Origin: an uncultured Piscirickettsiaceae bacterium
GTDB lineage: Bacteria; Pseudomonadota; Gammaproteobacteria; GCF-002020875
Assembly (NCBI GenBank): GCA_964344785.1
Contig: CAYFOR010000002.1
Span: 506-64,505, forward strand
Direction of reading: 5' to 3'
Length of the DNA: 64,000 bases
Part shown: in pieces, positions 5,910-35,409 of the stretch
Position numbering within the stretch: position 1 is the stretch's first letter
How the letters are laid out: each line of letters starts with the position of its first letter
Notes under the pieces: generated by a model
What the model saw: only the letters and a program-made list of their open reading frames with translations
Told to the model about the DNA's origin: nothing
Databases searched by the model: none
Translations under genes and position numbers: made by a program

Positions 5910-6179
5910 ATGTCTGTATCTACAGAACAGAAAAGAGAGATTGTTGAGAAATATCAGCGTAGTGACAATGATACCGGGTCTCCCGAGGTTCAGGTTGCAC
6001 TGTTGACGGCCCGTATTCAGGATCTGACGGGCCACTTTAAGGAACACAAGAAGGATCACCACTCCCGCCAGGGACTGTTGAAGATGGTGAACCAGCGTCG
6101 CAAACTACTCGATTATCTGAAGCGGGAGGATGGGAGTCGTTACTCTCAGCTGATTGCCGAGCTCGGTCTGCGTCGTTAA
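5910..6179 (+). CDS. rpsO: 30S ribosomal protein S15
   Basis: 89-aa [39 protein letters not shown]..; conserved position before pnp. Confidence 0.95.
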
Positions 6180-6196
6180 TCATAAAATCCGATTGT

Positions 6197-6378
6197 AACG
6201 GTTCAGCTCACCTCTGAAATCTACCATCTCTGCGTTCGAAAATGGTCATGTATACCGATAACACTACGGGCAGTGCTCGTGGTCATCTTGGGATACATTT
6301 ACATTTTCTGCCTTGGGCTGGTGGAGTTTAGAGGCAATCTGAATCAGTTACAGGTACCGGTAAATAGTTACATCCGAT
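6197..6378 (+). repeat. MITE-like mosaic intergenic repeat, type A copy 1 (rpsO-pnp spacer)
   Basis: Left end aacggttcagctcacctctgaaatc; core ..gaaaatggtcat..cagtgctcg..; right ggtggagtttagagg plus tail module caatctgaatcagttacaggtaccggtaaatagttac; shares modules with copies near 15.5, 23.3, 29.1, 31.6 and 35.3 kb. Confidence 0.8.
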
Positions 6379-6442: not shown

Positions 6443-8533
6443 GTGGAACCAATTATCAAGCGTTTCGAATATGGAAATCAGACGGTCACACTGGAGACCG
6501 GGGAAATTGCCCGCCAGGCATCAGGTGCAGTCAAGGTCAGCATGGGAGATACCGTCCTGCTGGTTACCGTGGTTGCGGAGAAAGAGGCTCGGGAGGGGCG
6601 TGACTTTTTCCCACTGACAGTCAACTATCAGGAGAAGTTCTATGCGGCAGGGGTCATTCCGGGAGGATTCTTCCGCAGAGAGGGACGTCCCACGGAGAAA
6701 GAGACGCTGACCTCAAGGTTGATCGACCGCCCAATCCGCCCACTCTTCCCGAAAGGGTTCATGAATGAGGTACAGGTGATCGCCACCGTGATGGCCTCTG
6801 ATCGGGATACCGATACCGAGATTCCGGCGATGATCGGAACCTCTGCTGCGTTGGCACTGTCTGGAGTTCCGTTTCAGGGACCGATTGGTGCCGCACGGGT
6901 TGGCTATCGTGATGGTGAATATCTGTTGAACCCTCCCCTGAGTGCCAAGGAAGAGTCTGATCTCGAACTGACCGTGGCTGGTACTGCGGATGCAGTGCTG
7001 ATGGTGGAGTCCGAAGCCAACATCCTTTCGGAAGAGGTGATGTTGGGTGCCGTGCTGTTTGGCCATGAGCAGATGCAGACCGTGATCGGGGCAATCAATG
7101 AAATGTGTGCCGAGCTTGAAGTCAAACAGTGGGAGTGGGAGCCTGCAGCGGAAGATACAGCATTGACCGAGGCGGTGGCCAAGGCGGGCGAAGATGCGGT
7201 TACCGATGTCTATCAGATTGCCGACAAGATGGAGCGCTACGGACGCATGGACGAGGTGCGTAGTCAGATTGTCGACGAATTGGTTACCGAGGATGGAGAG
7301 TGGGACGGCGACACCGTCAAGGCTGCCGTTTCCAAGCTGGAGAAAAAGGTTGTACGTGGTCGTATTATCGATGGACACCCCCGTATTGATGGTCGTGACA
7401 CCAAGACGGTCCGCCCTATTTTTGTAAAGACTGGAATTCTGCCACGTGTTCACGGTTCTGCACTCTTCACCCGTGGAGAGACCCAGGCAATGGTAGTCAC
7501 TACACTGGGTACCGACCGTGATGCACAGATCATTGATGCACTGGAGGGCAGCTTCAAGGACCCTTTCATGCTGCAATATAACTTTCCTCCATTTTCGGTT
7601 GGTGAAACCGGTCGTGTGGGCAGCCCCGGGCGCCGTGAAGTGGGTCATGGAAAACTGGCCAAACGGGGGGTGCAAGCCGTTGTCCCGTCGTTGGAAGAGT
7701 TCCCCTATACCATGCGCGTGGTCTCCGAGATTACCGAGTCCAATGGCTCCAGCTCGATGGCTTCTGTCTGTGGCAGCAGTCTGTCGATGATGGATGCAGG
7801 TGTACCGCTGAAAGCCCCGGTTGCCGGTATTGCAATGGGTTTGATCAAGGAGGGAGAGCAGTTTGCAGTATTGACGGACATCCTGGGTGATGAGGATCAC
7901 CTGGGTGATATGGACTTCAAGGTTGCGGGTACCACCGAGGGTGTGACTGCATTGCAGATGGATATCAAGATTACCGGGATTACCCGTGAAATCATGGAAA
8001 TCGCACTGGAGCAGGCACGCGAAGCCAGACTTCACATCCTGCAACAGATGAATACCGCTATCTCTACACCGCGGGAAGAGGTTTCGGAGTTTGCACCACG
8101 CTATCTCACCATGAAGATCGATCCGGACAAGATTCGTGATGTGATTGGCAAGGGTGGTGTGGTCATTCGTGCCATTCAGGAGGAGACCGGTGTCAAGATT
8201 GATCTGGATGATGATGGCAGTGTGAAGATTGCCGCAACCGATGGTGAGGCAGCGAAAGAGGCCAAACGCAGGATTGATGACATTGTTGCTGATGTCGAGG
8301 TGGACAAGATCTATGATGGCAAGGTAGTCAAGCTGATGGACTTCGGTGCATTTGTCAATATTCTTCCCGGCAAGGATGGTCTGGTCCACATCTCCCAGAT
8401 CTCTGCGGAGCGGGTGGAGAAAGTGAGTGACAAGCTGAGTGAGGGTGATCAGGTTCGGGTCAAGGTACTTGAAGTGGATCGTCAGGGCAGAATCCGTCTT
8501 AGCATGAAGGCTGTGCTGGAAGAGGAAGGGTAG
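6443..8533 (+). CDS. pnp: polyribonucleotide nucleotidyltransferase (PNPase)
   Basis: 696-aa ORF with GTG start ([26 protein letters not shown]..); two RNase PH domains, KH and S1 at C-terminus. Confidence 0.95.
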
Positions 8534-11708: not shown

Positions 11709-12584
11709 ATGGCAACGGAAGAGGAAGAGTACACTGCTGGAAAACTGCATGGGAGCGAGCGTGATGCGATGCACCTCTACATGCAGGAGATCCGGGACTA
11801 CCCACTGCTGAATGCTGAAGAGGAGCAGCAGTGGGCACGCAAGGTTCAGAAGGGGGATATTGATGCACGTAACCGGTTGGTTGAGTCCAACCTGCGTCTG
11901 GTAGTCAGTATCGCCCGTCGATACCAGAATCATGGTGTCTCACTGATGGATCTGGTCGAAGAGGGGAATCTTGGTCTGATGCGTGCAGTTGAGAAATTTG
12001 ATCCTGATCGGGGATTCCGTTTCTCAACCTATGCAACCTGGTGGATTCGACAGAGTGTCGACCGGGCAGTGATGAGTCAGGGGCGTACGGTGCGCCTGCC
12101 GATCCATATCCTGCGCGAGATGCGCGGCTATCTGCGTGCCTCACGCGAGCTGGCACAGAGTAGCAACCACGAACCTTCCGTTGCAGAGGTTGCGGACTAT
12201 CTTGACCGTTCTGAAGAGAGTGTCGATCAGATGATTACCTTCAGTGAGCCAACGACTTCGATTGAGACACCGATTGCCAAGGGTTCGAATCAGACCATCG
12301 GTGAAGTGATCGAAGATGAGTCGCTGGCTGCTCAGGATGAGAGACTGTTGCAGGAGGAGATCTATAACCATCTCAGTGAGTGGTTGGATGGGCTGAAGGA
12401 GCGGGAACGAAAGGTAGTGGTACACCGTTTCGGGCTACTCGATCAGGAGGAGATGACGCTGGATGCATTGGGTGAGGTATTGGGGGTGACCCGTGAACGG
12501 GTTCGACAGATCCAGATGGGGGCATTGAGCCACCTTCATGATATTCTGATTCGAGCAGGGTATTGTGAAGAGAATGTGCTATAA
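11709..12584 (+). CDS. rpoS: RNA polymerase sigma factor RpoS (sigma-38)
   Basis: 291-aa sigma-70 family ORF after nlpD; region 2 ([38 protein letters not shown]), region 4 HTH; short region 1 (no upstream in-frame start). Confidence 0.85.
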
Positions 12585-13289: not shown

Positions 13290-14426
<1,137 letters not shown>

Positions 14427-14454
14427 TGATACGGTGTAAAGAATTGAGCGGAGA

Positions 14455-23280: not shown

Positions 23281-23421
23281 TAACTGTTCATTGGTACTCG
23301 TAACTGATTCAGATTGCCTCTGAAATTCGTCAGATCAAGGCGTGAAATGTGAGTTTATACGTATAAATGTCCATTTCACAACACAGAGCTGGTGGATTTC
23401 AGAGGTGAGCTGAACAGTTGC
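23281..23421 (-). repeat. MITE-like repeat, type A copy 3 (inverted orientation), overlapping the rluC 3' end
   Basis: Tail module (revcomp) at 23281-23325, core caaggcgtgaaa..tttcacaacacaga, end ggtggatttcagaggtgagctgaacagtt; the end encodes the last 14 codons and stop of rluC. Confidence 0.8.
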
Positions 23422-24477: not shown

Positions 24478-27400
24478 TCACTCTTCCTTGTCGGCCAGGG
24501 CGGATACATATTCCTTGAACGCCATATCGTCTGTCAGGATGTGGTGTTCCCACCAGCTGATGAGGTGGTTGGTGATGGAGATAATCTGTTGATCTCCCAG
24601 CTGGTTTCGATAAAGATCGGATAACTTATCCCAATATTCTCTGTGTCCGGCCCTGTGGCGATCCAATTCAGGATAGTTTGCCTGTTCCAGCAGCGCCTCC
24701 TCCCTTTCAACATGAGCCATCATCATGTCGTGCAGGTCTGAGAGTGCCTTGAGTACACGCTCCCTGTCAGGTGCATGTTCTTCTCGGTTGCAGAATTGGA
24801 TCAAGAGATTGATGTGCTCAACAATCCGTTGATGGTCAAGGTCCAGCACCGGGTGACCTACGAAGTAGTGATCACTCCAGATGATCATTTTCATCGCATC
24901 GGTTTGGTGGTTGTCCGATGCAGCCTGGTCCTGGGGCAGGTGTTTTTTCAATGCATCAACCAATGCATTTTTGTCGATTGGCTTGGCCAGAAAGCCATTG
25001 CAACCGGCCTGCTCGAACTGCTCCCGGTGTTTCGCCATCACATTGGCAGTCAGTGCATAGATTGGCGTGTCAATCCCTCTTTTCCGTAGGATTCTGGTTG
25101 CCTCGATACCATCCATCACAGGCATCTGCATATCCATCAATATCATGTCAAATGGCTCATGTGTGGCTAATTCAACCGCCTCTTGCCCATTTTCTGCAGT
25201 GGTCACCGAAATTCCCTTTCCTTCAAGAATGCGGCGTTCCAGCAGCCTCAGGGCCGCTGTATCCTCTACGATCAGTACGTGACCCTTGAACATCTGTGTG
25301 TATGTGGTGGACTGCTCTTGCTGCTGTTGGTCCGTTACGATTCTGAAATCACTGCGTCGATACGGGATTGTCAGCGTAAAGGTGGAGCCGCTTCCCTTGT
25401 TGCTTTTGGCTGTGATGTTGCCCCCCATCATCTGGGCAAGATTGAATGAGATATAGAGCCCCAGTCCGCTACCACCAAATCTTCGGGAAATGGAGCCATC
25501 GGCCTGCTCAAACTTCTGGAATAGTCTTGACTGCTCCTCGGTGCTCATACCGATTCCGGTATCTTCAATATCAAACCGCAGGTACCCGTTTTCAACCATG
25601 GTGGTCAATTTGATGCCTCCCTGTTCGGTGAACTTGATCGCGTTGCCGATCAGGTTGATCAGTATTTGGCTGATTCGATTACTGTCACCGATTAACTCAT
25701 ACACTTCATGGTTTTGTTCAACAATCTCCAGCGTAAGACCGGCATCCTGTACCCGGATGGCCAACATCCCCTCGATATTCTCCAGCAGTCTGCTCAGGTT
25801 GAAGGGAATTTCGTCAATGGTATATTTGCCTGATTCGATCTTGGACATATCGAGAATGTCGTTCACAAGATTCAGCTGAGCGGTTCCGGCCGTCTCAATA
25901 TCGTCAACGATCTTCTTCAGATCGGGAGAGGAGAGCCTTTCGGAGAGATATTCCGCATTGCCGATGATTGAGGTCAGTGGTGTACGCAGCTCATGGCTCA
26001 TGGAGGCCATGAACTCATCGCGTGCATCCATCCGTTCCTGTTCAAGTCTCAGCCGCTCCTGTTGAAGCTGGATTCTTGAACTGATATCGACAACGGTGGC
26101 CAGGATGCCCTCTTCGTTTCCATAGGTGATCGGGGAGAGTCCGACTTCTACCGGGATCATCTCTCCCCGCTTTGTCAAACCGAATAGCTCTCGTCCACTA
26201 CCCATCGGGCGTTTTCGAGCCTCTTCCACATAGCGTTTTCGGGCACCGATGTGTTGCTCTCTCTGCGATTCTGAAATCAATACCTCTACCGGCTGTCCGA
26301 CCAGCTCTCCGCTATCGTAACCAAACAGTGATTCAGCGGCTGCATTGCAACGCACAATCGTGCCATATCGGTTGGTGACCACCATACCGCTGGGTGCAGC
26401 GTCAAAGGTCTGCAGAATTTCCCGGGTCATTTGTTGAATGGTTTTTGCCAGGATGTAGCCCTCCTGGTCGAATCGGTCCGCATTCTGATCGATATCAACT
26501 GTGGTATCCCCCTGTCGAATGGTCTCGGCGATATGGGTCAGTCTTTTCAGGGAAAAACCGATTCTGGATGCCATGAAATAGGCCACAATCAGGCCTGCAA
26601 ATGCAACAAAAATCAGCAGTTGGAGTAGTCTGCTACGTAGTGCCTCATAGGAGTGGTAGACCTCGTTCTGGTCCATCTTGACCAGCAGCCCCCATTTCTG
26701 TTCAGGGATCTGTGTCGTCACGGCGACCACGGGTACTTCGCGGTAATCTACGATATCCTCATGCCAGCCGGTCTCTCCAGCCAGCGCACGAATGATGGGT
26801 ACATCGGTACGGTCTGCAGCAATGGTACGGGAAAGTGCCCTGTTCTCATCAAATCGAAGTGGTGTAAGGAAACGGGCATCTCCGTTATCCAACTGTTCGG
26901 CCAGAATCGTCTCACCACTCTCTCCCAGGCCGTCATAGCTGGCAGTGATTTGGCGTAGCTCATTGAGATTGCTGTTGATATGCAGTGTGCCAACGCTCCT
27001 GCCGTTCAATAGAAGTGGTGTAATGGTATGAAGGTACAGTCGGCCTTCACTGCTCTTTTCGGTAATGGAGACATTCCCGGACAGATCGGAATCGAAAAGT
27101 GTCAATTCTGGTATTCCAACCGAATCGGGGTTGGTTGACATGATGGTGATCCCGTCTGCGTCAACAATCTTGATCTCATCGAAGTCCTCCAGTGATTGAA
27201 ATATGTCCTCAATCGTAAGGCAGATCTCCTTCCGGTATGATGAGTCGAGTGACCGGTTGTACTGCTCCAAAAGCTGCCGAAGCTGCGTATGGCTGGCGAT
27301 CAGTTTGGCGCGCTGCTGCATGCGTTCAAGAAAGGTAGATACCCGTTGTTGCTGGATGGATGCGACGGAAAGCAGCTGGTCACGGGCATCCTGTTTCAGT

Positions 27401-27546
27401 TTGTTCCTGAACTCCTGCAAGGCCAATGTGGTGATGGTTCCGGCCACAATCACTCCAAACAGTATCAGCCCCAAGGTGATTCGGCTCAGGATTGAGTATC
27501 GCTTGCGCGTTTTGGGCCTATCGTGATTTTTGAAAATCGATTTCAT
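24478..27546 (-). CDS. hybrid sensor histidine kinase with C-terminal hemerythrin domain
   Basis: 1022 aa: TM1, ~280-aa periplasmic domain, TM2, PAS, H-box SHELRTPL, HATPase (GGSGLGLYIS), REC, then ~135-aa hemerythrin-like His/Glu/Asp ligand pattern (HPVLDLDHQRIVEH, HVEREE, HRAGHREYWD, WWEHHILTDD). Confidence 0.85.
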   Translation of the reverse strand: MKSIFKNHDRPKTRKRYSILSRITLGLILFGVIVAGTITTLALQEFRNKLKQDARDQLLSVASIQQQRVSTFLERMQQRAKLIASHTQLRQLLEQYNRSLDSSYRKEICLTIEDIFQSLEDFDEIKIVDADGITIMSTNPDSVGIPELTLFDSDLSGNVSITEKSSEGRLYLHTITPLLLNGRSVGTLHINSNLNELRQITASYDGLGESGETILAEQLDNGDARFLTPLRFDENRALSRTIAADRTDVPIIRALAGETGWHEDIVDYREVPVVAVTTQIPEQKWGLLVKMDQNEVYHSYEALRSRLLQLLIFVAFAGLIVAYFMASRIGFSLKRLTHIAETIRQGDTTVDIDQNADRFDQEGYILAKTIQQMTREILQTFDAAPSGMVVTNRYGTIVRCNAAAESLFGYDSGELVGQPVEVLISESQREQHIGARKRYVEEARKRPMGSGRELFGLTKRGEMIPVEVGLSPITYGNEEGILATVVDISSRIQLQQERLRLEQERMDARDEFMASMSHELRTPLTSIIGNAEYLSERLSSPDLKKIVDDIETAGTAQLNLVNDILDMSKIESGKYTIDEIPFNLSRLLENIEGMLAIRVQDAGLTLEIVEQNHEVYELIGDSNRISQILINLIGNAIKFTEQGGIKLTTMVENGYLRFDIEDTGIGMSTEEQSRLFQKFEQADGSISRRFGGSGLGLYISFNLAQMMGGNITAKSNKGSGSTFTLTIPYRRSDFRIVTDQQQQEQSTTYTQMFKGHVLIVEDTAALRLLERRILEGKGISVTTAENGQEAVELATHEPFDMILMDMQMPVMDGIEATRILRKRGIDTPIYALTANVMAKHREQFEQAGCNGFLAKPIDKNALVDALKKHLPQDQAASDNHQTDAMKMIIWSDHYFVGHPVLDLDHQRIVEHINLLIQFCNREEHAPDRERVLKALSDLHDMMMAHVEREEALLEQANYPELDRHRAGHREYWDKLSDLYRNQLGDQQIISITNHLISWWEHHILTDDMAFKEYVSALADKEE

Positions 27547-27911
27547 CAGCAGTCAGCATATCAAGCCATTTCATCAAGATCCGTTCAGTTCTGAAAGGGC
27601 AGAATAGGGCAGCAATGTTATCGCTGTGGGTTGGTGTATATATAAACCGGGAGTCTAATTTGCATCTATTGGTAATACTGCTGCCATGGACAAATTCTTG
27701 GACCGGTTGCTTGGCGCACCTGTTTTTCAACAGGGGGGTTCTTGGCTTCAGTATCAAATTAACTTGATTTCAACAATGGTGTTGATTGGTATATTAATCG
27801 ATTGGTATCAAAAAAGGAGAGGTTGTTGGGTGGTGGGCATGCCGGAGTGGGATGAGAGGTTGATTTATATGACCAACTGTTTTACTATGTTATTGGGTAG
27901 GATTGTGACGC

Positions 27912-29054
27912 ATGATGAAACTCATGAATAGAAAATGGGCGTTAACCGCTTCTTTGTTGGTGATGATCGGTATCTTCGTATTGGGAGGTATCAGTGCCCG
28001 TCTGACGATAGCGCAGGAGGAGCCAGAGATGGGTGATCAATCCAGGGTTGAACGAGCCATTTTTGCCGGTGGGTGCTTCTGGTGTATGGAGCCACCATTC
28101 GAAAAACTTGATGGTGTAGTCGATGTAGTTTCCGGTTTCACAGGTGGTGACACGGTGGACCCAACCTACAAGCAGGTAGTGACCGGTACTACAGGCCATC
28201 TGGAGGCGGTCGAGGTGACCTATGACCCGGCCAGGATCGATTATGGAACGCTGGTGGATACTTTCTGGCGACAGATTGACCCAACGGATGATGGTGGTTC
28301 CTTTGTGGATCGGGGAAGCCACTATCGTAGTGCAATCTTCTATCTGAATGCGGAACAGCAGGCGGCTGCAGAGCAGTCCAAAAGCGAGTTGGGACAGTCC
28401 GGGATGTTTGAGCAGCCCATTGTGACCGCCATTCTTCCAGCCAAACCCTTTTATCGGGCGGAGGATTATCATCAGAACTTCTACAAAACCAACCCGTTAC
28501 ACTATAAACGTTATCGTGCAGGATCTGGCCGGGATCAGTTTATTCAGTCGACCTGGATCAGTATGAAATCTGACCAGACTGATACCCCGAAGAAATATGT
28601 AAAGCCATCGGATGATGAACTCAAACGGCGCTTGACGCCACTGCAGTTTGAAGTGACGCAGGAGGAGGGAACCGAGCGTGCCTTCAACAATATCTACTGG
28701 GATAACAAGGCGGATGGGATCTATGTTGATATCGTTTCAGGAGAGCCGCTCTTCAGTTCCACCGACAAGTACGATTCTGGTACCGGCTGGCCGAGCTTCA
28801 CCCGTCCAATCGTAAAGGATGTACTCACCGAGAAAGAGGATCGTCGCCTCTGGTTCTCGGTACGAACAGAGGTGCGCAGTAAATTTGCGGACTCCCATCT
28901 TGGGCATGTCTTCGATGACGGCCCTGCACCGACCGGGCTACGTTACTGTATCAACTCCGCATCACTGCGCTTCATACCCAAAGAGGATCTGAAAAGTGAA
29001 GGGTATGAAGAGTTCATCAAGTTATTTGATCGCAACGACCCGGATCACCCCTGA
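27912..29054 (+). CDS. msrAB: secreted/periplasmic peptide methionine sulfoxide reductase MsrA-MsrB fusion
   Basis: Signal/anchor peptide; MsrA catalytic GCFWC; MsrB GTGWPSF and RYCINSASL; the stop lies inside the repeat end cacccctgaaa. Confidence 0.9.
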
Positions 29055-29183
29055 AACTCACCATCTCTGCGTTCGAAAATGGTCATGTATACGTATATAT
29101 GACCATTTTCTGCCTTGATCTGGTGAGTTTCAGAGGCAATCCGACCCGTTACGACAGTGTACTAAAACTACATTTGATTCAGA
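29045..29183 (+). repeat. MITE-like repeat, type A copy 4, overlapping the msrAB stop
   Basis: cacccctgaaactcaccatctctgcg; perfect hairpin cgaaaatggtcatgtatacgtatatatgaccattttctg; ggtgagtttcagaggcaat. Confidence 0.8.
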
Positions 29184-29270
29184 ATAACCAAGTCAGTACC
29201 CTCACCACTCTGAGGTAACGGGGAAATCCGTTGCCATCTCTCAACGTGACTGCTTGAGCCCTGGGAGGCT

Positions 29271-29825
29271 TTGCTGATGAGTGGTGATAACCATATGGAA
29301 GTGGTTGATTTGTTGGCTCGTACTGCACTGAAAGAGCGTGCTGCCTTCGAAAGGCTCTATCGGCTGACCTCGATGAAACTGTTTCCCCTGTTGCTGCGTA
29401 TATTAAAGCGAGAGGATCTTGCTCAGGAGTGTCTTCAGGAAGCCTACGTACAGATCTGGAATCGCGCAGAAGAGTATCGAAACGATCTGGCTGCACCGAT
29501 TACCTGGATGACGACCATTGCCCGTTATCGTGCATTGGACCTGCTTCGAAGGCGTAAACATGAAGTGCCACTGGAAGACGAGATGCTCTTGGATGGTGAT
29601 GAAGAGCGGGACGGATTATTGCAGCAACTGGAGGCAACAGAGGATGGAGTGGCGTTGGCCGAGTGTATGAAGCAGTTGAGTCAGCAGCAGCGGAACTGCA
29701 TCTACCTTGCGTACTTTGAGGGGAGTACTCACCCGGAAATCGCCTCCAGAATGGATGTGCCTGTTGGATCCGTCAAGACCTGGATTCGTCGAGGAATGAG
29801 CAGCTTGAAGGGGTGTCTGTCATGA
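29271..29825 (+). CDS. ECF-type RNA polymerase sigma-70 factor
   Basis: 184 aa; sigma-70 region 2 (..YVQIWNRAEEY..PITWMTTIARYRALDLLRRR) and region 4 HTH (HPEIASRMDVPVGSVKTWIRRG). Confidence 0.85.
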   Translation: MLMSGDNHMEVVDLLARTALKERAAFERLYRLTSMKLFPLLLRILKREDLAQECLQEAYVQIWNRAEEYRNDLAAPITWMTTIARYRALDLLRRRKHEVPLEDEMLLDGDEERDGLLQQLEATEDGVALAECMKQLSQQQRNCIYLAYFEGSTHPEIASRMDVPVGSVKTWIRRGMSSLKGCLS

Positions 29826-30496
29826 GTCAAGAGATTGAGGAGAGAGCAGCAGGGTATGTATTGGGTACGCTTGCGGGGGAGGAACGTGAATCATTCGAAA
29901 TGCAGATGCGCAAGGATCGCACACTTGCAGAGATGGTGGCCCAGTGGGAGCAGCGACTGCAGCCTCTGGCGGATACGGTTGGTGAGGTGCAGCCGCCTCA
30001 ACAGGTTTGGCGTAACATCGAACAACGCCTGGGCTTTGAAGATTCGGTTCGGCAACACTCATTCTGGGACAATCTGCGGCTCTGGCAGGGCATCAGTGCG
30101 GTGGCAACCGCCTTTGGAATCTGGTTCGCCTTTCTGGTCATCAATATGGCGCCGCAAGGCCCCGAGTTGCTCTATCTGGTTCAGGATCAGGGAAAGACAG
30201 AGTGGATTGTAAGAGCGAGCTATCAGCAGCCCCGGGTAGAGATCGAGGCTGTTGAACCACCGCATCTGCCACAAGGGCAGGTGTGCCAGCTCTGGCTGAC
30301 CCTGCCGGATGGGTCGGTCAGGCTGGTTGCCGAACTGCCCCACAGTGGAGAGGTGTCCGTTCCACTTTTCGGAGACATCAATCGATTGCTCTCACCAGGC
30401 ACCATGCTCTCCGTTACCGTGGAGAGCGCCGAGGAGAAAATGGATCGTATCCCCAGTGATACGATGGTTTCTCAAGGCCGCTGGATCAGAATCTAA
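29813..30496 (+). CDS. anti-sigma factor (RskA/ChrR-like), single TM
   Basis: Overlaps the sigma gene end; N-terminal AAGYVLGTL..ERESFE..WE.RL.PL anti-sigma motif; TM ISAVATAFGIWFAFLVINM; extracytoplasmic C-domain. Confidence 0.7.
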   Translation: MSVMSQEIEERAAGYVLGTLAGEERESFEMQMRKDRTLAEMVAQWEQRLQPLADTVGEVQPPQQVWRNIEQRLGFEDSVRQHSFWDNLRLWQGISAVATAFGIWFAFLVINMAPQGPELLYLVQDQGKTEWIVRASYQQPRVEIEAVEPPHLPQGQVCQLWLTLPDGSVRLVAELPHSGEVSVPLFGDINRLLSPGTMLSVTVESAEEKMDRIPSDTMVSQGRWIRI

Positions 30497-30505
30497 TCGT
30501 TTCTA

Positions 30506-31444
30506 GTGGCTGAGATACAGGCCGGTATGTTGAACAACCAGTCCTGCAACGAAGGTCTGCTGCAGGATATGCTGTTGCTGGACCATCTGGGAGACGTGGG
30601 GATGAGTGAAATGATTTCACTGATGCGTCTTCATGTCCAGGAGGTGACACGGTTCAGTTTGCTGGTTGCCTACAGGCTGCCCCTCTCTGCAGAGCAGCAA
30701 CGTGTGTTTGTGCGGGACTGTTCCGGTTATGAGATTGACCCGGAACCATTTTTACAGACGGTAGAAGGGGGGACTCGACTCTCAATTGCAGGTATACAGT
30801 TGCTGAAAATCTGTGCCAAGGTGCATGATATCGGCAAGCCATTCTTCCGACAGATCTACAGCCAGGCCCGAAGATTGACACAGCAGGAGTTCAATCAACA
30901 GAAACTGCATGCCAATCTGTCGCGTTTGATCGTGAAGGGGTGGCTCAATCAGCCCGGTCTCCACTTTTCCAACCCTGATCTGGTACGGATGGTGGCTGAT
31001 GTCGCTGCACAACATCAGGAGAAGTTTGATGGTACCGGCTACCCGGATGGCATCGCAGGAGAGGAGATCTCGCTGTTGGGGCGGCTGCTGGCGATTACCG
31101 ATGCAATCAGTGCGATTGTCAATCCACGCCCTTATGAGGCAGCAACGCCACTACAGGAGGCACTGGTTCGACTGGAGTCGGACAGTGGCAGACATTTTGA
31201 CCCGCTGCTGCTTGAACAGGCCATCACTGTGCTGCGCCAGGAGGTGACGGATGCTCCTCGTTTCAGTGGTGAGTGGGATGATATGTCTGAACACTCACCG
31301 GACTATCTTCAGTTTGTTGCCAATATCGATTACGCCGAGGTGGTTTCAAGCCGTGGCGAGGTTGGCCGTGGTGATCGCCAGACGCTGCAGCAGTTGCAGC
31401 AGTTGACACAGGAGGTTCTGGAGCGACCCATAAGAAAAAATTGA
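30506..31444 (+). CDS. HD-GYP-type domain protein (possibly degenerate)
   Basis: HD motif KVHDIGKPF and QHQEKFDGTGYPDG (HHExxDGxGYP with the first His replaced by Gln); ..ITDAISAIVNPRPY. Confidence 0.65.
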   Translation: MAEIQAGMLNNQSCNEGLLQDMLLLDHLGDVGMSEMISLMRLHVQEVTRFSLLVAYRLPLSAEQQRVFVRDCSGYEIDPEPFLQTVEGGTRLSIAGIQLLKICAKVHDIGKPFFRQIYSQARRLTQQEFNQQKLHANLSRLIVKGWLNQPGLHFSNPDLVRMVADVAAQHQEKFDGTGYPDGIAGEEISLLGRLLAITDAISAIVNPRPYEAATPLQEALVRLESDSGRHFDPLLLEQAITVLRQEVTDAPRFSGEWDDMSEHSPDYLQFVANIDYAEVVSSRGEVGRGDRQTLQQLQQLTQEVLERPIRKN

Positions 31445-31535
31445 AAAAAATCAAAAAAACTGAATCCATTGGTACGAACACCACGTATATCATACCGACT
31501 GGTGTTCACACTGTTGAACGGGTCGAAAACCGATA

Positions 31536-31730
31536 AGGAGCCTGGTGACAATTAAGTTGGACAGATTGCGCAGGATTTCGTTTCGTATTCAAGGCGTGAA
31601 AATGGGCGCATAACACTACGAGCAGTGCTCGAGGTCACCTTAGGGTATTCATTATATGTAACCGTTTTCACAACACAGAAGACGAAACGAAAGACAAGCA
31701 AGGTGTTCGAGTTATTTTTGCCAGGTTCCT
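31536..31730. repeat. MITE-like mosaic repeat, type B copy 2, directly upstream of the precursor gene
   Basis: aggagcctggtgacaa../..ttatttttgccaggttcct ends; core gacagattgcgcagg..caaggcgtgaaa..cactacgagcagtgctcg..tttcacaacacagaagacga. Confidence 0.8.
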
Positions 31731-31760
31731 TGGTCAATAAAATTCAATGGAGTAATAAAC

Positions 31761-32099
31761 ATGGACAAGAAGATCTCAACGCTGGCATTGGCAACTTCCG
31801 TTGCATTGGGAATGGGTGCATCGAGTACTACTTTTGCAGCAGATAACCCATTCGCCATCTCCGAGTTGCCGGCTGGTTATCAGTTGGCCAACAACATGGA
31901 AGGCAAATGTGGTGAAGGTAAGTGTGGTGGCTCCAAGCCCAAGGCCAGTGAAGAAGGCAAGTGCGGTGAAGGCAAGTGTGGCGGTTCCAAGCCCAAGGCG
32001 AGCGAAGGCAAATGTGGTGAAGGTAAGTGTGGTGGCGCCAAACCCAAGGCCAGTGAAGGCAAGTGCGGTGAAGGAAAATGTGGTGGTGGAAAGGTATAA
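31761..32099 (+). CDS. secreted Cys-rich repeat precursor peptide (bufferin-like, EGKCG-repeat class)
   Basis: 112 aa: Sec signal peptide (..GASSTTFA|ADNP), then 3.5 tandem units EGKCGEGKCGG[S/A]KPKAS (8 Cys); stop is 3 nt before the DUF692 gene. Confidence 0.8.
   Translation: MDKKISTLALATSVALGMGASSTTFAADNPFAISELPAGYQLANNMEGKCGEGKCGGSKPKASEEGKCGEGKCGGSKPKASEGKCGEGKCGGAKPKASEGKCGEGKCGGGKV
31899..32096 (+). repeat. 48-51-nt coding tandem repeat (x3.5) inside the precursor gene
   Basis: gaaggcaa(a/g)tg(t/c)ggtgaagg(t/c/a)aa(g/a)tgtgg(t/c)gg(c/t)(t/g)ccaa(g/a)cccaaggc(c/g)ag(t/c)ga units with mostly synonymous differences. Confidence 0.85.
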
Positions 32100-32102
32100 G
32101 CG

Positions 32103-32960
32103 ATGAAGCAACCCAACCCACCTATTTCCGGTGTTGGCCTGGGGCTCCGGCGTGATCTTCTGGACACGCTGGAGGTGCAGATCCCCGGTTCCATCGAGTT
32201 TATGGAGGCTGCTCCTGAAAACTGGATGGGGCTTGGGGGCAGGCTGCGCGACTCACTGGAACGGGTTGTGGAGCAGGTCCCGTTGATCTGTCATGGACTT
32301 TCACTCAATCTTGGAGGTTACAGTCCACTCGATCAACAATTTCTAAAAGAGCTCCGTCAGTTCCTGGATCTCTATCAGATTCCGGTCTACAGCGAGCACC
32401 TCAGCTACTGTGGAGACCATGGACATCTTTATGACCTGATGCCGATCCCGTTTACAGAAGAGGCGGTGCGCTATGTCGTCGAACGTATTCGGCAGGTTGA
32501 AGATGCCTTGGAGCGTCCACTCGTATTGGAGAATATCTCCTACTACGCCGCACCGGGACAACAGATGAGTGAACTGGAATTTATCCAGGCGGTGCTGGAA
32601 GAGTCCGGGTGTGAGATGTTGCTGGATGTAAATAATATTTATGTCAACAGTGTCAATCACCGTTACGACCCGGCACAGTTTCTAAGTGAGCTCAGTGACC
32701 GGAAGATAAGTTATATCCATGTGGCCGGGCACTACCATGAGGCTGAAGATCTGATCGTGGATACTCATGGGGCTGCCGTGGAAGATCCGGTGTGGGCGTT
32801 GCTGCAGCAGGCCTACGGACAGTTTGGTGCAGTGCCTACGCTGTTGGAACGTGATTTCAATATTCCGGCCCTGGAAGAGTTGCTGGCAGAGATGGCACAG
32901 ATTCGCCAATACCAGCAGGCAGTGAACAATAGTGCAGAGGAGTTTGCGGATGTTGCATGA
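32103..32960 (+). CDS. DUF692-family protein (MbnB/BufB-like peptide-modifying enzyme)
   Basis: 285 aa; GVGLGLRRDLL..EFMEAAPENWMG..LICHGLSLNLGG..YSEHLSYCG..LVLENISYY matches the DUF692 signature. Confidence 0.85.
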   Translation: MKQPNPPISGVGLGLRRDLLDTLEVQIPGSIEFMEAAPENWMGLGGRLRDSLERVVEQVPLICHGLSLNLGGYSPLDQQFLKELRQFLDLYQIPVYSEHLSYCGDHGHLYDLMPIPFTEEAVRYVVERIRQVEDALERPLVLENISYYAAPGQQMSELEFIQAVLEESGCEMLLDVNNIYVNSVNHRYDPAQFLSELSDRKISYIHVAGHYHEAEDLIVDTHGAAVEDPVWALLQQAYGQFGAVPTLLERDFNIPALEELLAEMAQIRQYQQAVNNSAEEFADVA

Positions 32961-33738
32961 TCAAACCGCTCCATCTTATCGCTTTCAGCAACTGCAGCAG
33001 CAGTTTGCCGCTCATATTCGTTCCCCCGAACGGCAACCGATACCAGATGGGATCGAGGCCAGAAGGATGGCGATCTATGAGGAGCTGTTCTTCAATAATG
33101 TAGAGGGAATACTCGCCAGTGGATTTCCGGTGATTCGAACGCTCTATAGTGAAGAGAAGTGGCATCAGTTGGTACGGGACTTTTTCCATCTGCACCCCTG
33201 CAAGAGCCCCTATTTTTCACAAATCCCGTATGAATTTGTCCAATACCTGATGAATGAACGGGATCAGAGTTCGGATGATCCGCCATTTCTGCTGGAGTTG
33301 GCCCACTACGAATGGGTTGAGCTGGAGCTGAGTATCGATCCAGCCTCTCCGCAGTGGGATGAGTACGGCATGGTGGATGAGACTCTGCACCATATCGCGG
33401 TCCTCTCTCCGTTGGTCAGGGTATTGAGTTACCACTATCCGGTACAGATGATATCTGCCGAGAATGCACCAGTGGAGGCGCCACCGCAGCCAACCTATCT
33501 GTTGCTCTATCGGGACCGCAATCATGAGATCCACTTTATGGAGTCGAATCCGTTGGTCAACCGTCTCGTTGAATGGGTTGGTGAAGGGCGGGGTGCGGTG
33601 CGGGTGTTGCTGATCCAGTTGGCGGAGGAGTTTGGGCTCCCTGCAGATGAGGGCTGGTTGATGCATGGCAAGCAGCTACTGGATGAACTGGCCGTGCGCG
33701 GAGTCATTCTGGGCTATCAGACAAGCGGAGAGGAGTGA
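32950..33738 (+). CDS. DUF2063-family protein (MbnC/BufC-like partner)
   Basis: Overlaps the DUF692 end by 11 nt; N-terminal ..FQQLQQQFAAHIRSPE.. DUF2063-type domain; alternative start 32932. Confidence 0.7.
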   Translation: MLHDQTAPSYRFQQLQQQFAAHIRSPERQPIPDGIEARRMAIYEELFFNNVEGILASGFPVIRTLYSEEKWHQLVRDFFHLHPCKSPYFSQIPYEFVQYLMNERDQSSDDPPFLLELAHYEWVELELSIDPASPQWDEYGMVDETLHHIAVLSPLVRVLSYHYPVQMISAENAPVEAPPQPTYLLLYRDRNHEIHFMESNPLVNRLVEWVGEGRGAVRVLLIQLAEEFGLPADEGWLMHGKQLLDELAVRGVILGYQTSGEE

Positions 33739-34334
33739 TGATCCGGTTATTGATACAATTTCAGAAATGGATGGATCTGGGCCGAAATATCGATTTTCTG
33801 GCGCCACTGGCCTTGCGGCTCTATCTGGTACCGGTATTCCTGACTGCGGGCATGAACAAGGTCAACGGCTTTGAAAATGTCGTGGAGTGGTTCGGTAATA
33901 GTGAGTGGGGATTGGGACTTCCCCTTCCCTGGCTGATGGCGCTGTTGGCGACTGCAGCGGAGGTGATTGGTTCGCTGATGCTGCTGTTTGGATTTGGCGT
34001 TCGCTGGGCTACGATTCCCCTGATGGTGACAATGATCGTTGCGATCGTGACGGTCCATCTTGAGCATGGTTGGCAGGCTGTTGTCGATGGTAATAGCCCG
34101 TTCCCTCCGGCAGATTTGGCAGAAGCCCAGGAGCGACTACAGGCCGCTCGCTCCATTCTGCAGGAACATGGACACTATGACTGGCTGACGGCCAGTGGCA
34201 ATTTTGTAATTTCAAACAATGGAGTGGAGTGGGCAGTGACCTATCTTGTCATGCTGCTTGCGCTTTTCATCAGTGGAGGGGGGCGTTATCTGAGCGCGGA
34301 TTTCTGGATCAGAAGAAGATATTTTCCAGAATAA
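33735..34334 (+). CDS. DoxX-family membrane protein
   Basis: ATGA overlap with the DUF2063 stop; 199 aa, 3-4 TM segments, DoxX-like LALRLYLVPVFLTAGMNK. Confidence 0.75.
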   Translation: MMIRLLIQFQKWMDLGRNIDFLAPLALRLYLVPVFLTAGMNKVNGFENVVEWFGNSEWGLGLPLPWLMALLATAAEVIGSLMLLFGFGVRWATIPLMVTMIVAIVTVHLEHGWQAVVDGNSPFPPADLAEAQERLQAARSILQEHGHYDWLTASGNFVISNNGVEWAVTYLVMLLALFISGGGRYLSADFWIRRRYFPE

Positions 34335-35272: not shown

Positions 35273-35409
35273 AACTGTTCAGTTCACCCCTGAAATCCGC
35301 CATCTCTGCGTTGTGAAATGGTCATTTATACGTATAAACTCACTCACGCCTTGATCTGACGAATTTGAAGGGCAATTTGAATCAGTTACTGGTTCTGGTG
35401 AGTAATTAC
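35273..35409 (+). repeat. MITE-like repeat, type A copy 5 (upstream of serS)
   Basis: aactgttcagttcacccctgaaatc..ttgtgaaatggtcat..cgtataaa..gaatttgaagggcaatttgaatcagttactggttctggtgagtaattac. Confidence 0.8.

Follow-up and report, generated by a model that had tools for sequence, protein, structure and literature searches.

Which genes are controlled by an extracytoplasmic function (ECF) sigma factor whose gene stands, together with those of an anti-sigma factor and an HD-GYP protein, directly ahead of an operon for a ribosomally synthesised and post-translationally modified peptide (RiPP)? The question is raised by positions 29,271–31,444 of a 64,000-nt stretch of DNA (the window) from an uncultured Piscirickettsiaceae bacterium (assembly GCA_964344785.1, contig CAYFOR010000002.1, positions 506–64,505 of the forward strand). 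An earlier note had read the three genes as a regulatory module attached to a bufferin-like operon. According to the present analysis, the sigma/anti-sigma pair is of a SigK/RskA-like type and probably heads a small periplasmic oxidative/metal-stress regulon that here includes the RiPP operon, hvfABCX; it does not appear to be a regulator dedicated to that cluster.

The main evidence is a promoter motif. The consensus published for ECF18 promoters comprises a −35 element xGCATCC and a −10 element xxCGTATx (PMC13492112). The motif G[AC]A[AT]C[CT]-N16-CGTAT[AT] fits this consensus and has the form of a SigK/RskA-type promoter. It occurs once in the intergenic DNA of the window, 271 nt upstream of hvfA, where GAATCC-N16-CGTATA (31462–31489) is the sole perfect match to GMATCY-N16-CGTAT on both strands of the 64 kb. 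The strict form, G[AC]A[AT]C[CT]-N16-CGTATA, has 17 matches in 372 kb (the window and the loci fetched from relatives), all on the strand of the sigma gene; shuffled sequence gives 0.155 on average and two at most. Position weight matrix (PWM) scores are bimodal, with sites at 17 bits or more and background at 15 bits or less. Two such sites, and no more, fall in the window, and the one ahead of hvfA scores 21.2. A blind bipartite search (5-mer, N15–18, 4-mer) of nine upstream regions yielded nothing that exceeded shuffled controls; its set mixed regions with and without sites, and the motif emerged only via the literature consensus for ECF18. The earlier note had suggested that an ECF-type promoter be sought upstream of position 31761, along with sigma-70 motifs as the alternative. 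The former is present, and no sigma-70-like promoter was found on the plus strand upstream of hvfA or anywhere between msrAB and crcB (27.5–34.7 kb), the counts of such motifs not rising above chance. The same strand also has no predicted terminator from msrAB to crcB.

The site recurs at L042 and L043 (loci from other genomes are given L numbers), which hold the two closest of the HvfB homologues whose contigs were available. GAATCC-N16-CGTATA lies 64 nt before the hvfA ATG in L042, and GAATCT-N16-CGTATT lies 56 nt before it in L043. The hexamers are identical to those of the window at 12 of 12 positions in L042 (6/6 and 6/6) and at 10 of 12 in L043 (5/6 and 5/6), whereas the spacers agree at 7 of 16 and 5 of 16 positions, and the downstream sequence has diverged as well. 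L043 comes from the same metagenome-assembled genome (GCA_018671205.1) as the sigma locus L015; hvf carries the motif there too, although it and the sigma gene lie on separate contigs. In view of the 31462–31489 motif and its conservation in L042 and L043, control of the RiPP operon by the ECF pair, as proposed in the earlier note, is very probable; what does not stand is a dedicated regulator, the predicted regulon being centred on msrAB. The features of the locus are as follows.

24478–27546, minus strand: gene for a hemerythrin hybrid histidine kinase, identified by domain search.
27912–29054, plus strand: msrAB, an MsrA–MsrB fusion, membrane-anchored or periplasmic, with PMSR and SelR domains.
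29060–29141, no strand assigned: palindromic repeat resembling repetitive extragenic palindromes (REP-like) between msrAB and the sigma gene; copies at 6223–6339, 23312–23376 and 35300–35336.
29277–29825, plus strand: ECF sigma gene, SigK-like (ECF18/19), matching Sigma70_r2, Sigma70_r4_2 and TIGR02937; best PDB match 4NQW.
29375–29402, plus strand: predicted promoter within the sigma gene, GAAACT-N16-CGTATA, from motif match and codon-level constraint.
29822–30496, plus strand: gene for an RskA-type single-pass anti-sigma factor, with RskA_C, one hydrophobic segment and an ATGA overlap.
30506–31444, plus strand: stand-alone HD-GYP gene, HQE variant, with HD_5 and HD domains, an alignment to PmGH (4MCW) and an AlphaFold model.
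31462–31489, plus strand: predicted hvfABCX promoter, GAATCC-N16-CGTATA, from motif match, PWM score 21.2 and homologous sites in L042 and L043.
31556–31732, no strand assigned: long-hairpin repeat in the hvfA leader; second copy at 14287–14428.
31761–32099, plus strand: hvfA, oxazolin-type precursor, by the KCGExKCG_twice model.
32103–32960, plus strand: hvfB, MNIO maturase, by NF003818.
32932–33738, plus strand: hvfC, partner protein (DUF2063/NGO1945_C), by NF050145.
33735–34334, plus strand: hvfX, DoxX-family membrane protein, by NF050144.

The open reading frames (ORFs) for the sigma factor, anti-sigma factor and HD-GYP protein were found at the coordinates that the earlier note had given, and several points of its description were confirmed: the MsrA–MsrB fusion and the hemerythrin kinase lie upstream, the sigma gene overlaps that of an anti-sigma factor with a single transmembrane (TM) segment, and a repeat element precedes the RiPP operon. 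The distance of 9 nt between the anti-sigma stop and the HD-GYP gene holds with a GTG start at 30506; with ATG 30527, where the 305-aa database copy P0001 begins, it is 30 nt. The gap from the HD-GYP stop to hvfA is 316 nt and holds the 31556–31732 repeat.

The description of the operon itself has to be changed. Judged by its profile matches, the downstream RiPP operon is of the Hvf/oxazolin kind (hvfABCX). HvfA has a signal peptide and four EGKCGEGKCG repeats with 8 Cys; it scores 90.3 bits against the NCBIfam model KCGExKCG_twice (cut-off 19.5), falls below the cut-off of the HvfA equivalog model (84 vs 95) and has no Pfam match. HvfB scores 423.7 bits against NF003818 (cut-off 360), HvfC 294.9 bits against NF050145 (cut-off 142) and HvfX 232.5 bits against NF050144 (cut-off 80). 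A bufferin (Buf1/Buf2) operon was rejected: the precursor has no DUF2282 or Buf_6/12Cys match and fits the HvfA models, and the maturase is below the cut-off of the BufB model (273 vs 310). The oxazolins are a family of RiPPs (PMC11252979, PMC12452194), and HvfA-type peptides bind Cu(I) (PMC11252979).

The sigma ORF spans 29271–29825; translation likely begins at ATG 29277, preceded by GGGAGG, and gives a protein of 182 aa. It matches Sigma70_r2 (6e-11) and Sigma70_r4_2 (6.5e-16) in Pfam and scores 78 bits against TIGR02937 (cut-off 42.9). With sigma-2 and sigma-4 domains only, a small size and an overlapping anti-sigma gene, it has the hallmarks of ECF (group IV) sigma factors. The closest PDB entry is Mycobacterium tuberculosis SigK–RskA (4NQW, E = 5e-23), and in the phmmer alignment both redox cysteines of SigK are aligned: C130 and C180 here correspond to C133 and C183 of M. 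tuberculosis (AECM/TECL and KGCL/RNCL). SigK-like sigma factors with RskA anti-sigma factors constitute ECF18/ECF19, where the cysteine pair represents an additional redox-sensitive layer of control; family statistics for the pair are available (PMC7509140). The curated SigK models were missed (NF007228, 139 bits vs a cut-off of 226; PRK12514, 142 vs 265). Since the score falls short of the NCBIfam SigK cut-off, the pair is, by these comparisons, SigK/RskA-like (ECF18/19 type, with ECF18, ECF19 and ECF214 all candidates) and not a SigK orthologue.

The anti-sigma ORF spans 29813–30496. The likely start, ATG 29822, overlaps the sigma stop by 4 nt (ATGA) and yields a protein of 224 aa, which scores 32.4 bits against Pfam RskA_C (PF10099; gathering score 29.4) and has a single hydrophobic segment at residues ~90–108. 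The predicted topology shows a cytoplasmic N-terminal domain, one TM helix and a periplasmic RskA_C domain. The N-terminal domain contains no Cys or His and thus no zinc-binding anti-sigma (ZAS) motif (HxxxCxxC), and a domain search detected no cupin domain in the protein. For these reasons the anti-sigma factor is RskA-like and not ChrR-like; of the earlier label ‘RskA/ChrR-like’, the first part is borne out by the PF10099 match and the second was rejected.

Related loci were traced to contigs from anti-sigma homologues (50–52% identity) and from HD-GYP homologues; for the anti-sigma locus search, a wider alignment (A1) was too divergent and a narrower one (A2) was used. The relatives are uncultured Thiotrichales/Piscirickettsiaceae-type Gammaproteobacteria, and their loci have a common backbone, Maf–HAD–RluC … crcB–DUF190–serS–cysG. 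Between RluC and crcB they contain the following genes.

L006/L029/L015: msrAB–sigma–anti-sigma, with a 9-nt gap between msrAB and the sigma gene.
L014/L028/L009: msrAB–sigma–anti-sigma–HD-GYP.
L012: DUF3179–msrAB–sigma–anti-sigma, then other genes.
L013/L026: sigma–anti-sigma–HD-GYP–DUF3179.
L001: msrAB–HD-GYP, without the sigma pair.

The order msrAB–sigma–anti-sigma is kept in L006/L029, L012, L014/L028, L009 and L015, that is, in five or six lineages. The promoter motif points to the same partner, preceding msrAB in L014/L028 and DUF3179–msrAB in L012. In both L012 and L013/L026 it also precedes a pair of P460-like cytochrome genes and, despite the differing gene order, a gene for a Met-rich DUF6789 membrane protein together with a Glu-synthase-domain gene. 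L012 has an exact GCATCC-N16-CGTATA at 12097, with the variants GAATCC and GAAACT occurring elsewhere; the intergenic sites in the relatives are located 32–122 nt before start codons. Sites thus precede hvfA (window, L042, L043) or msrAB (L014/L028, L012), never both in one sequenced locus. The earlier note had seen a theme of periplasmic oxidative and metal stress in the surroundings. The oxidative part is supported by the motif before msrAB and by the periplasmic redox genes in relatives; the hemerythrin kinase drops out, as it is not a conserved neighbour in the compared loci.

The genes at L012 10750–12579 and 12674–14314 and at L013/L026 15410–19186, encoding P460-like periplasmic cytochromes, DUF6789 proteins and a Glu-synthase-domain FMN protein, are candidate regulon members; no homologues of them are present in the 64-kb window. 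A GAAACT-N16-CGTATT sequence at L028 11708 (minus strand), between the HD-GYP gene and crcB, points into the HD-GYP gene and may have arisen by chance or serve as an antisense promoter.

The second site of the window, GAAACT-N16-CGTATA (29375–29402), lies ~100 nt into the sigma ORF. Among the sigma genes examined, down to 41% identity, all that match the strict pattern have the motif at the equivalent place. When the codons of seven sigma genes are aligned, the Arg-Ile codons within the −10 element are CGT-ATA in all seven, whereas none of the 36 other columns with a conserved degenerate residue keeps one codon; ATA makes up 7% of the Ile codons in the genes of the window. The codon ahead of the −35 element always ends in G, with the amino acid varying (M, P, S, T, A). 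This conservation at the level of codons within the sigma gene implies selection at the level of DNA. The intragenic motif is predicted to be a sigma-dependent promoter for the anti-sigma gene, providing negative feedback, and in the window, L013 and L014 also for the HD-GYP gene.

The form G[AC]AACT-N16-CGTATA, including the rare ATA, is also kept in the sigma genes L016, L021, L031–L033, L036, L037 and L039–L041, which are of the SigK/RskA-like type and belong to distantly related, high-GC Betaproteobacteria, Janthinobacterium among them (the 41–50% identity group). No description of internal ECF promoters of this kind was found in the literature searched. In Escherichia coli, a sigma-E-dependent promoter of rseA lies inside rpoE. 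A wider generalisation can be offered tentatively, as an idea that is somewhat less likely to hold than to fail: ECF18/19-type sigma genes might carry a hard-wired internal sigma-dependent promoter, selected at synonymous sites from Thiotrichales to high-GC Betaproteobacteria and feeding the anti-sigma gene (negative feedback) and, in this clade, the gene for the HQE HD-GYP protein, so that periplasmic redox stress would be coupled to oxazolin and cyclic-dinucleotide signalling.

The HD-GYP protein has matches to Pfam HD_5 (7e-21) and HD and contains VHDIGK (H107/D108) and HQEKFDGTGYP, that is, both the HD dyad and the GYP motif. Its AlphaFold model has a predicted local distance difference test (pLDDT) score of 91, and the top structural matches are PA4781, PmGH and c-di-GMP (cyclic di-GMP)-bound DvhD; as judged from the modelled fold and the motifs, it is an HD-GYP protein. 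It belongs to a sharply bounded subfamily with ~19 full-length homologues, after which the score falls from 227 to 87 bits. The subfamily is characterised by the lack of a sensor domain, an N-terminal motif LDHLGDxGMSEM..RLHVQEV, a ~70-aa C-terminal tail (RFSGxW) and, as its signature, HQEKxDGxGYP. In 16 of 18 members Gln replaces the latter of the two His in the canonical HHE motif (H276/H277 of PmGH), so that the ligand set is not complete; the remaining mapped metal ligands are invariant in the subfamily, the counterpart of PmGH E185 lying outside the mapping. In another setting, at L003 8905–9698, a 53%-identical HD-GYP homologue is convergent with a different ECF sigma gene and a zf-HC2 anti-sigma gene; this locus also adjoins genes for a Cornifin-like repeat protein and a multihaem/thioredoxin protein.

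A mechanism consistent with these data can be proposed. The RskA-type anti-sigma factor would hold the sigma factor at the membrane, and envelope redox stress would free it via the cysteine pair of the sigma factor and/or proteolysis of the anti-sigma factor. RNA polymerase with this sigma factor would then transcribe hvfABCX from 31462–31489; HvfBC would mature HvfA, and the product would be secreted as an oxazolin, a peptide that binds Cu(I). The sigma factor would also fire the promoter at 29375–29402, yielding more anti-sigma factor as negative feedback, as well as HD-GYP protein, which might reduce the amount of a cyclic dinucleotide. The hairpin repeat would have lengthened the hvfA leader later.

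Several observations weigh against this reading. The sites and the regulon are in silico predictions from sequence alone, and a paralogous ECF18-type sigma factor encoded elsewhere may read the motif. The degenerate motif was defined in part after the sites of L014 and the window had been seen, L012, L013, L042 and L043 serving as independent confirmations. In the window, no motif lies upstream of msrAB (27547–27911) or of the sigma gene (29142–29276), apart from a weak AAATCC-N15-CGTGAC; the regulon would thus be unlike that of the relatives, and the sigma factor's own transcription is left unaccounted for. Moreover, none of the compared related lineages has hvf at this locus, so msrAB appears to be the conserved, ancestral partner of the pair, and adjacency of hvf to the sigma gene is peculiar to the lineage of the window. 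The gene order of L028 is that of the window minus hvfABCX, and the sequence just past hvfX in the window resembles that just past the HD-GYP gene in L028, which indicates that the hvf block comes or goes as a whole; this block, which has a sigma-type promoter of its own, may have been inserted between the HD-GYP gene and crcB here or lost in relatives. In Cupriavidus metallidurans, control of the gig (bufferin) operon by the adjacent rpoQ–rsqA pair could not be demonstrated (PMC13492112), which makes adjacency alone weak evidence of control. The gene order conserved without hvf, the L028 locus and the gig case would all suit an alternative in which the pair serves msrAB and unlinked targets only, hvf being an accidental neighbour under another regulator or transcribed by read-through, for which the absence of a terminator between the HD-GYP gene and hvfA leaves room. 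This alternative is nevertheless unlikely: hvfA shares the motif with msrAB and other targets in three independent lineages, with hexamers conserved and spacers diverged; in one case hvfA has the motif although hvf and the sigma gene are on different contigs of the same genome; and no sigma-70-type site was found ahead of hvfA.

A cluster-dedicated copper-sensing module of the bufferin SigF/NrsF (RpoQ/RsqA) kind would agree with the binding of Cu(I) by HvfA-type peptides (PMC11252979) and with Buf1 clusters, which often contain sigma/NrsF genes and are induced by copper in Caulobacter. It is, however, quite improbable here. The likeness to ECF pairs of bufferin clusters assumed in the earlier note fails, the pair being of the SigK/RskA type and not of the NrsF type reported for Buf1 clusters; precursor and maturase are Hvf, not Buf, and sigma genes are not reported as common in oxazolin clusters. 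The conserved partners of the pair are msrAB and other redox genes. Copper responsiveness lacks support; RpoE2, the best-studied analogue, whose control of an hvf operon has been characterised, reacts to HOCl and H2O2. The place of the HD-GYP gene in the proposed regulon is a separate matter. It is probably co-transcribed with the anti-sigma gene, as suggested by the spacing of the two genes. This predicted co-transcription is the only ground for a possible link to c-di-GMP, and the protein has an atypical HQE metal motif. The opposite view, that it is an unrelated housekeeping gene in mere synteny and outside the output of the sigma factor, or encodes a catalytically impaired protein without a role in c-di-GMP turnover, deserves serious consideration, although it is the less probable of the outcomes. 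Homologues with 41–56% identity in L004 and L022–L025 have unrelated contexts without linkage to a sigma gene, the L001 gene follows msrAB in the absence of the sigma pair, L006/L029 and L012 have no HD-GYP gene at the locus, and the altered metal motif fits impairment. Set against this, an HD-GYP gene follows the anti-sigma gene in L013/L026 and L014/L028 too, and in three lineages the gap is just 9–59 nt (9 nt in the window; in L013, 19 nt measured from the ORF or ~59 nt from the tblastn match; 49 nt in L014). No terminator was predicted in the window on the plus strand, and the sigma gene, further upstream, contains a conserved promoter of the sigma type; the fold is confidently HD-GYP with the GYP motif and the other metal ligands invariant. 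The literature searched on HD-GYP proteins combined with ECF/anti-sigma genes yielded no account of such an arrangement.

The leader from the predicted promoter to hvfA is 271 nt in the window and 56–64 nt in L042 and L043, both of which have no hairpin repeat; the greater length is explained by insertion of the repeat downstream of the promoter and ahead of the conserved ribosome-binding region. The two copies of the repeat share 90–95% identity and are ~140–180 nt long, and the hvfA leader with its copy folds as a long hairpin (z = −6.8). Both copies end ~25 nt ahead of a plus-strand start codon, of hvfA and of an alanine-dehydrogenase-like gene, respectively, and the copy at hvfA has an extra ~40-nt insert related to 6258–6285. 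The REP-like palindromes form a family of intergenic repeats in the window, one copy of which separates msrAB from the sigma gene. In two related loci, an element resembling a miniature inverted-repeat transposable element (MITE), with terminal inverted repeats GGGCACCTCTAAAAAT ... ATTTTTAGAGGTGCC, is located upstream of the HD-GYP gene (L001, ~7840–8000) and upstream of msrAB (L006, ~6130–6297). A search for RNA families returned a sole match, a sub-threshold c-di-GMP-I riboswitch at 27668–27750 (minus strand), 122–204 nt upstream of the hemerythrin kinase gene. The match is full-length and includes the GAAA-tetraloop hairpin; it was rejected at 27.4 bits (gathering score 35) and for want of the conserved GGCAAA core.

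Oxazolins (Hvf), copper-binding RiPPs that were described as a family only recently, act as a virulence factor in Haemophilus influenzae; their regulation beyond that species is essentially undescribed. Both msrAB and a DoxX/hvf cluster are under the control of RpoE2 in H. influenzae and of SigE in Neisseria meningitidis, with HOCl and H2O2 as the stimuli (PMC7907618). The wiring of a sigma factor to hvf is therefore known already in Haemophilus and Neisseria, and the predicted sites indicate that regulators of another family provide it here. The regulon logic of RpoE2/sigma-E, namely MsrAB repair and an Hvf peptide, has apparently been reached by convergence in another ECF family. The same logic suggests that Hvf peptides would function in periplasmic oxidative defence and not in copper homeostasis alone. 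The motif can be used for predicting SigK/RskA-like regulons in uncultured marine Gammaproteobacteria, and the conserved promoter within the sigma gene is possibly a general feedback device of this ECF family.

Among known systems, H. influenzae RpoE2–HrsE (PMC7907618) likewise comprises an ECF sigma factor with a co-transcribed anti-sigma factor near msrAB, controls msrAB and HvfA/HvfB/HvfC/HvfX and serves envelope oxidative defence. It differs in that HrsE is a 67-aa cytoplasmic ZAS peptide, whereas the anti-sigma factor here is a 224-aa single-pass protein of the RskA type and the sigma factor is SigK-like; the small cytoplasmic ZAS anti-sigma factor typical of RpoE2–HrsE and SigE–MseR is thus absent. 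H. influenzae hvf is unlinked from the sigma gene but adjacent here, and no HD-GYP gene is reported there; the likeness is one of predicted regulon and of gene content. In N. meningitidis/gonorrhoeae SigE (Ecf)–MseR, as far as the summary in PMC7907618 goes, the sigma factor also controls msrAB and a cluster of DoxX and three hypothetical proteins; MseR is a ZAS-type anti-sigma factor, and the comparison is by description of the regulon.

M. tuberculosis SigK–RskA (ECF19, 4NQW) resembles the pair in its adjacent genes, both redox cysteines and an anti-sigma factor with RskA_C and one TM helix; identity is ~30%, and the targets are mpt70/mpt83, as compared with the predicted targets hvf and msrAB here. 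Caulobacter SigF–NrsF and Cupriavidus RpoQ–RsqA are alike in that the ECF pair adjoins an operon that encodes an MNIO, DUF2063 and DoxX proteins and a RiPP precursor with a signal peptide; they are unlike in belonging to ECF16, with multi-pass NrsF anti-sigma factors, DUF2282 or Buf2 precursors and induction by copper. The HD-GYP phosphodiesterases PmGH (4MCW), PA4781 (4R8Z) and DvhD (9RBZ) share with the protein at this locus the fold, HD dyad, GYP motif and five of the mapped metal ligands; the latter has Gln for the second His of HHE, no REC or PAS sensor, and its own N-terminal motif and C-terminal tail. By analogy of predicted regulon and gene content, the closest analogues of the locus as a whole are RpoE2–HrsE and SigE–MseR, the bufferin-associated SigF/NrsF being more distant.

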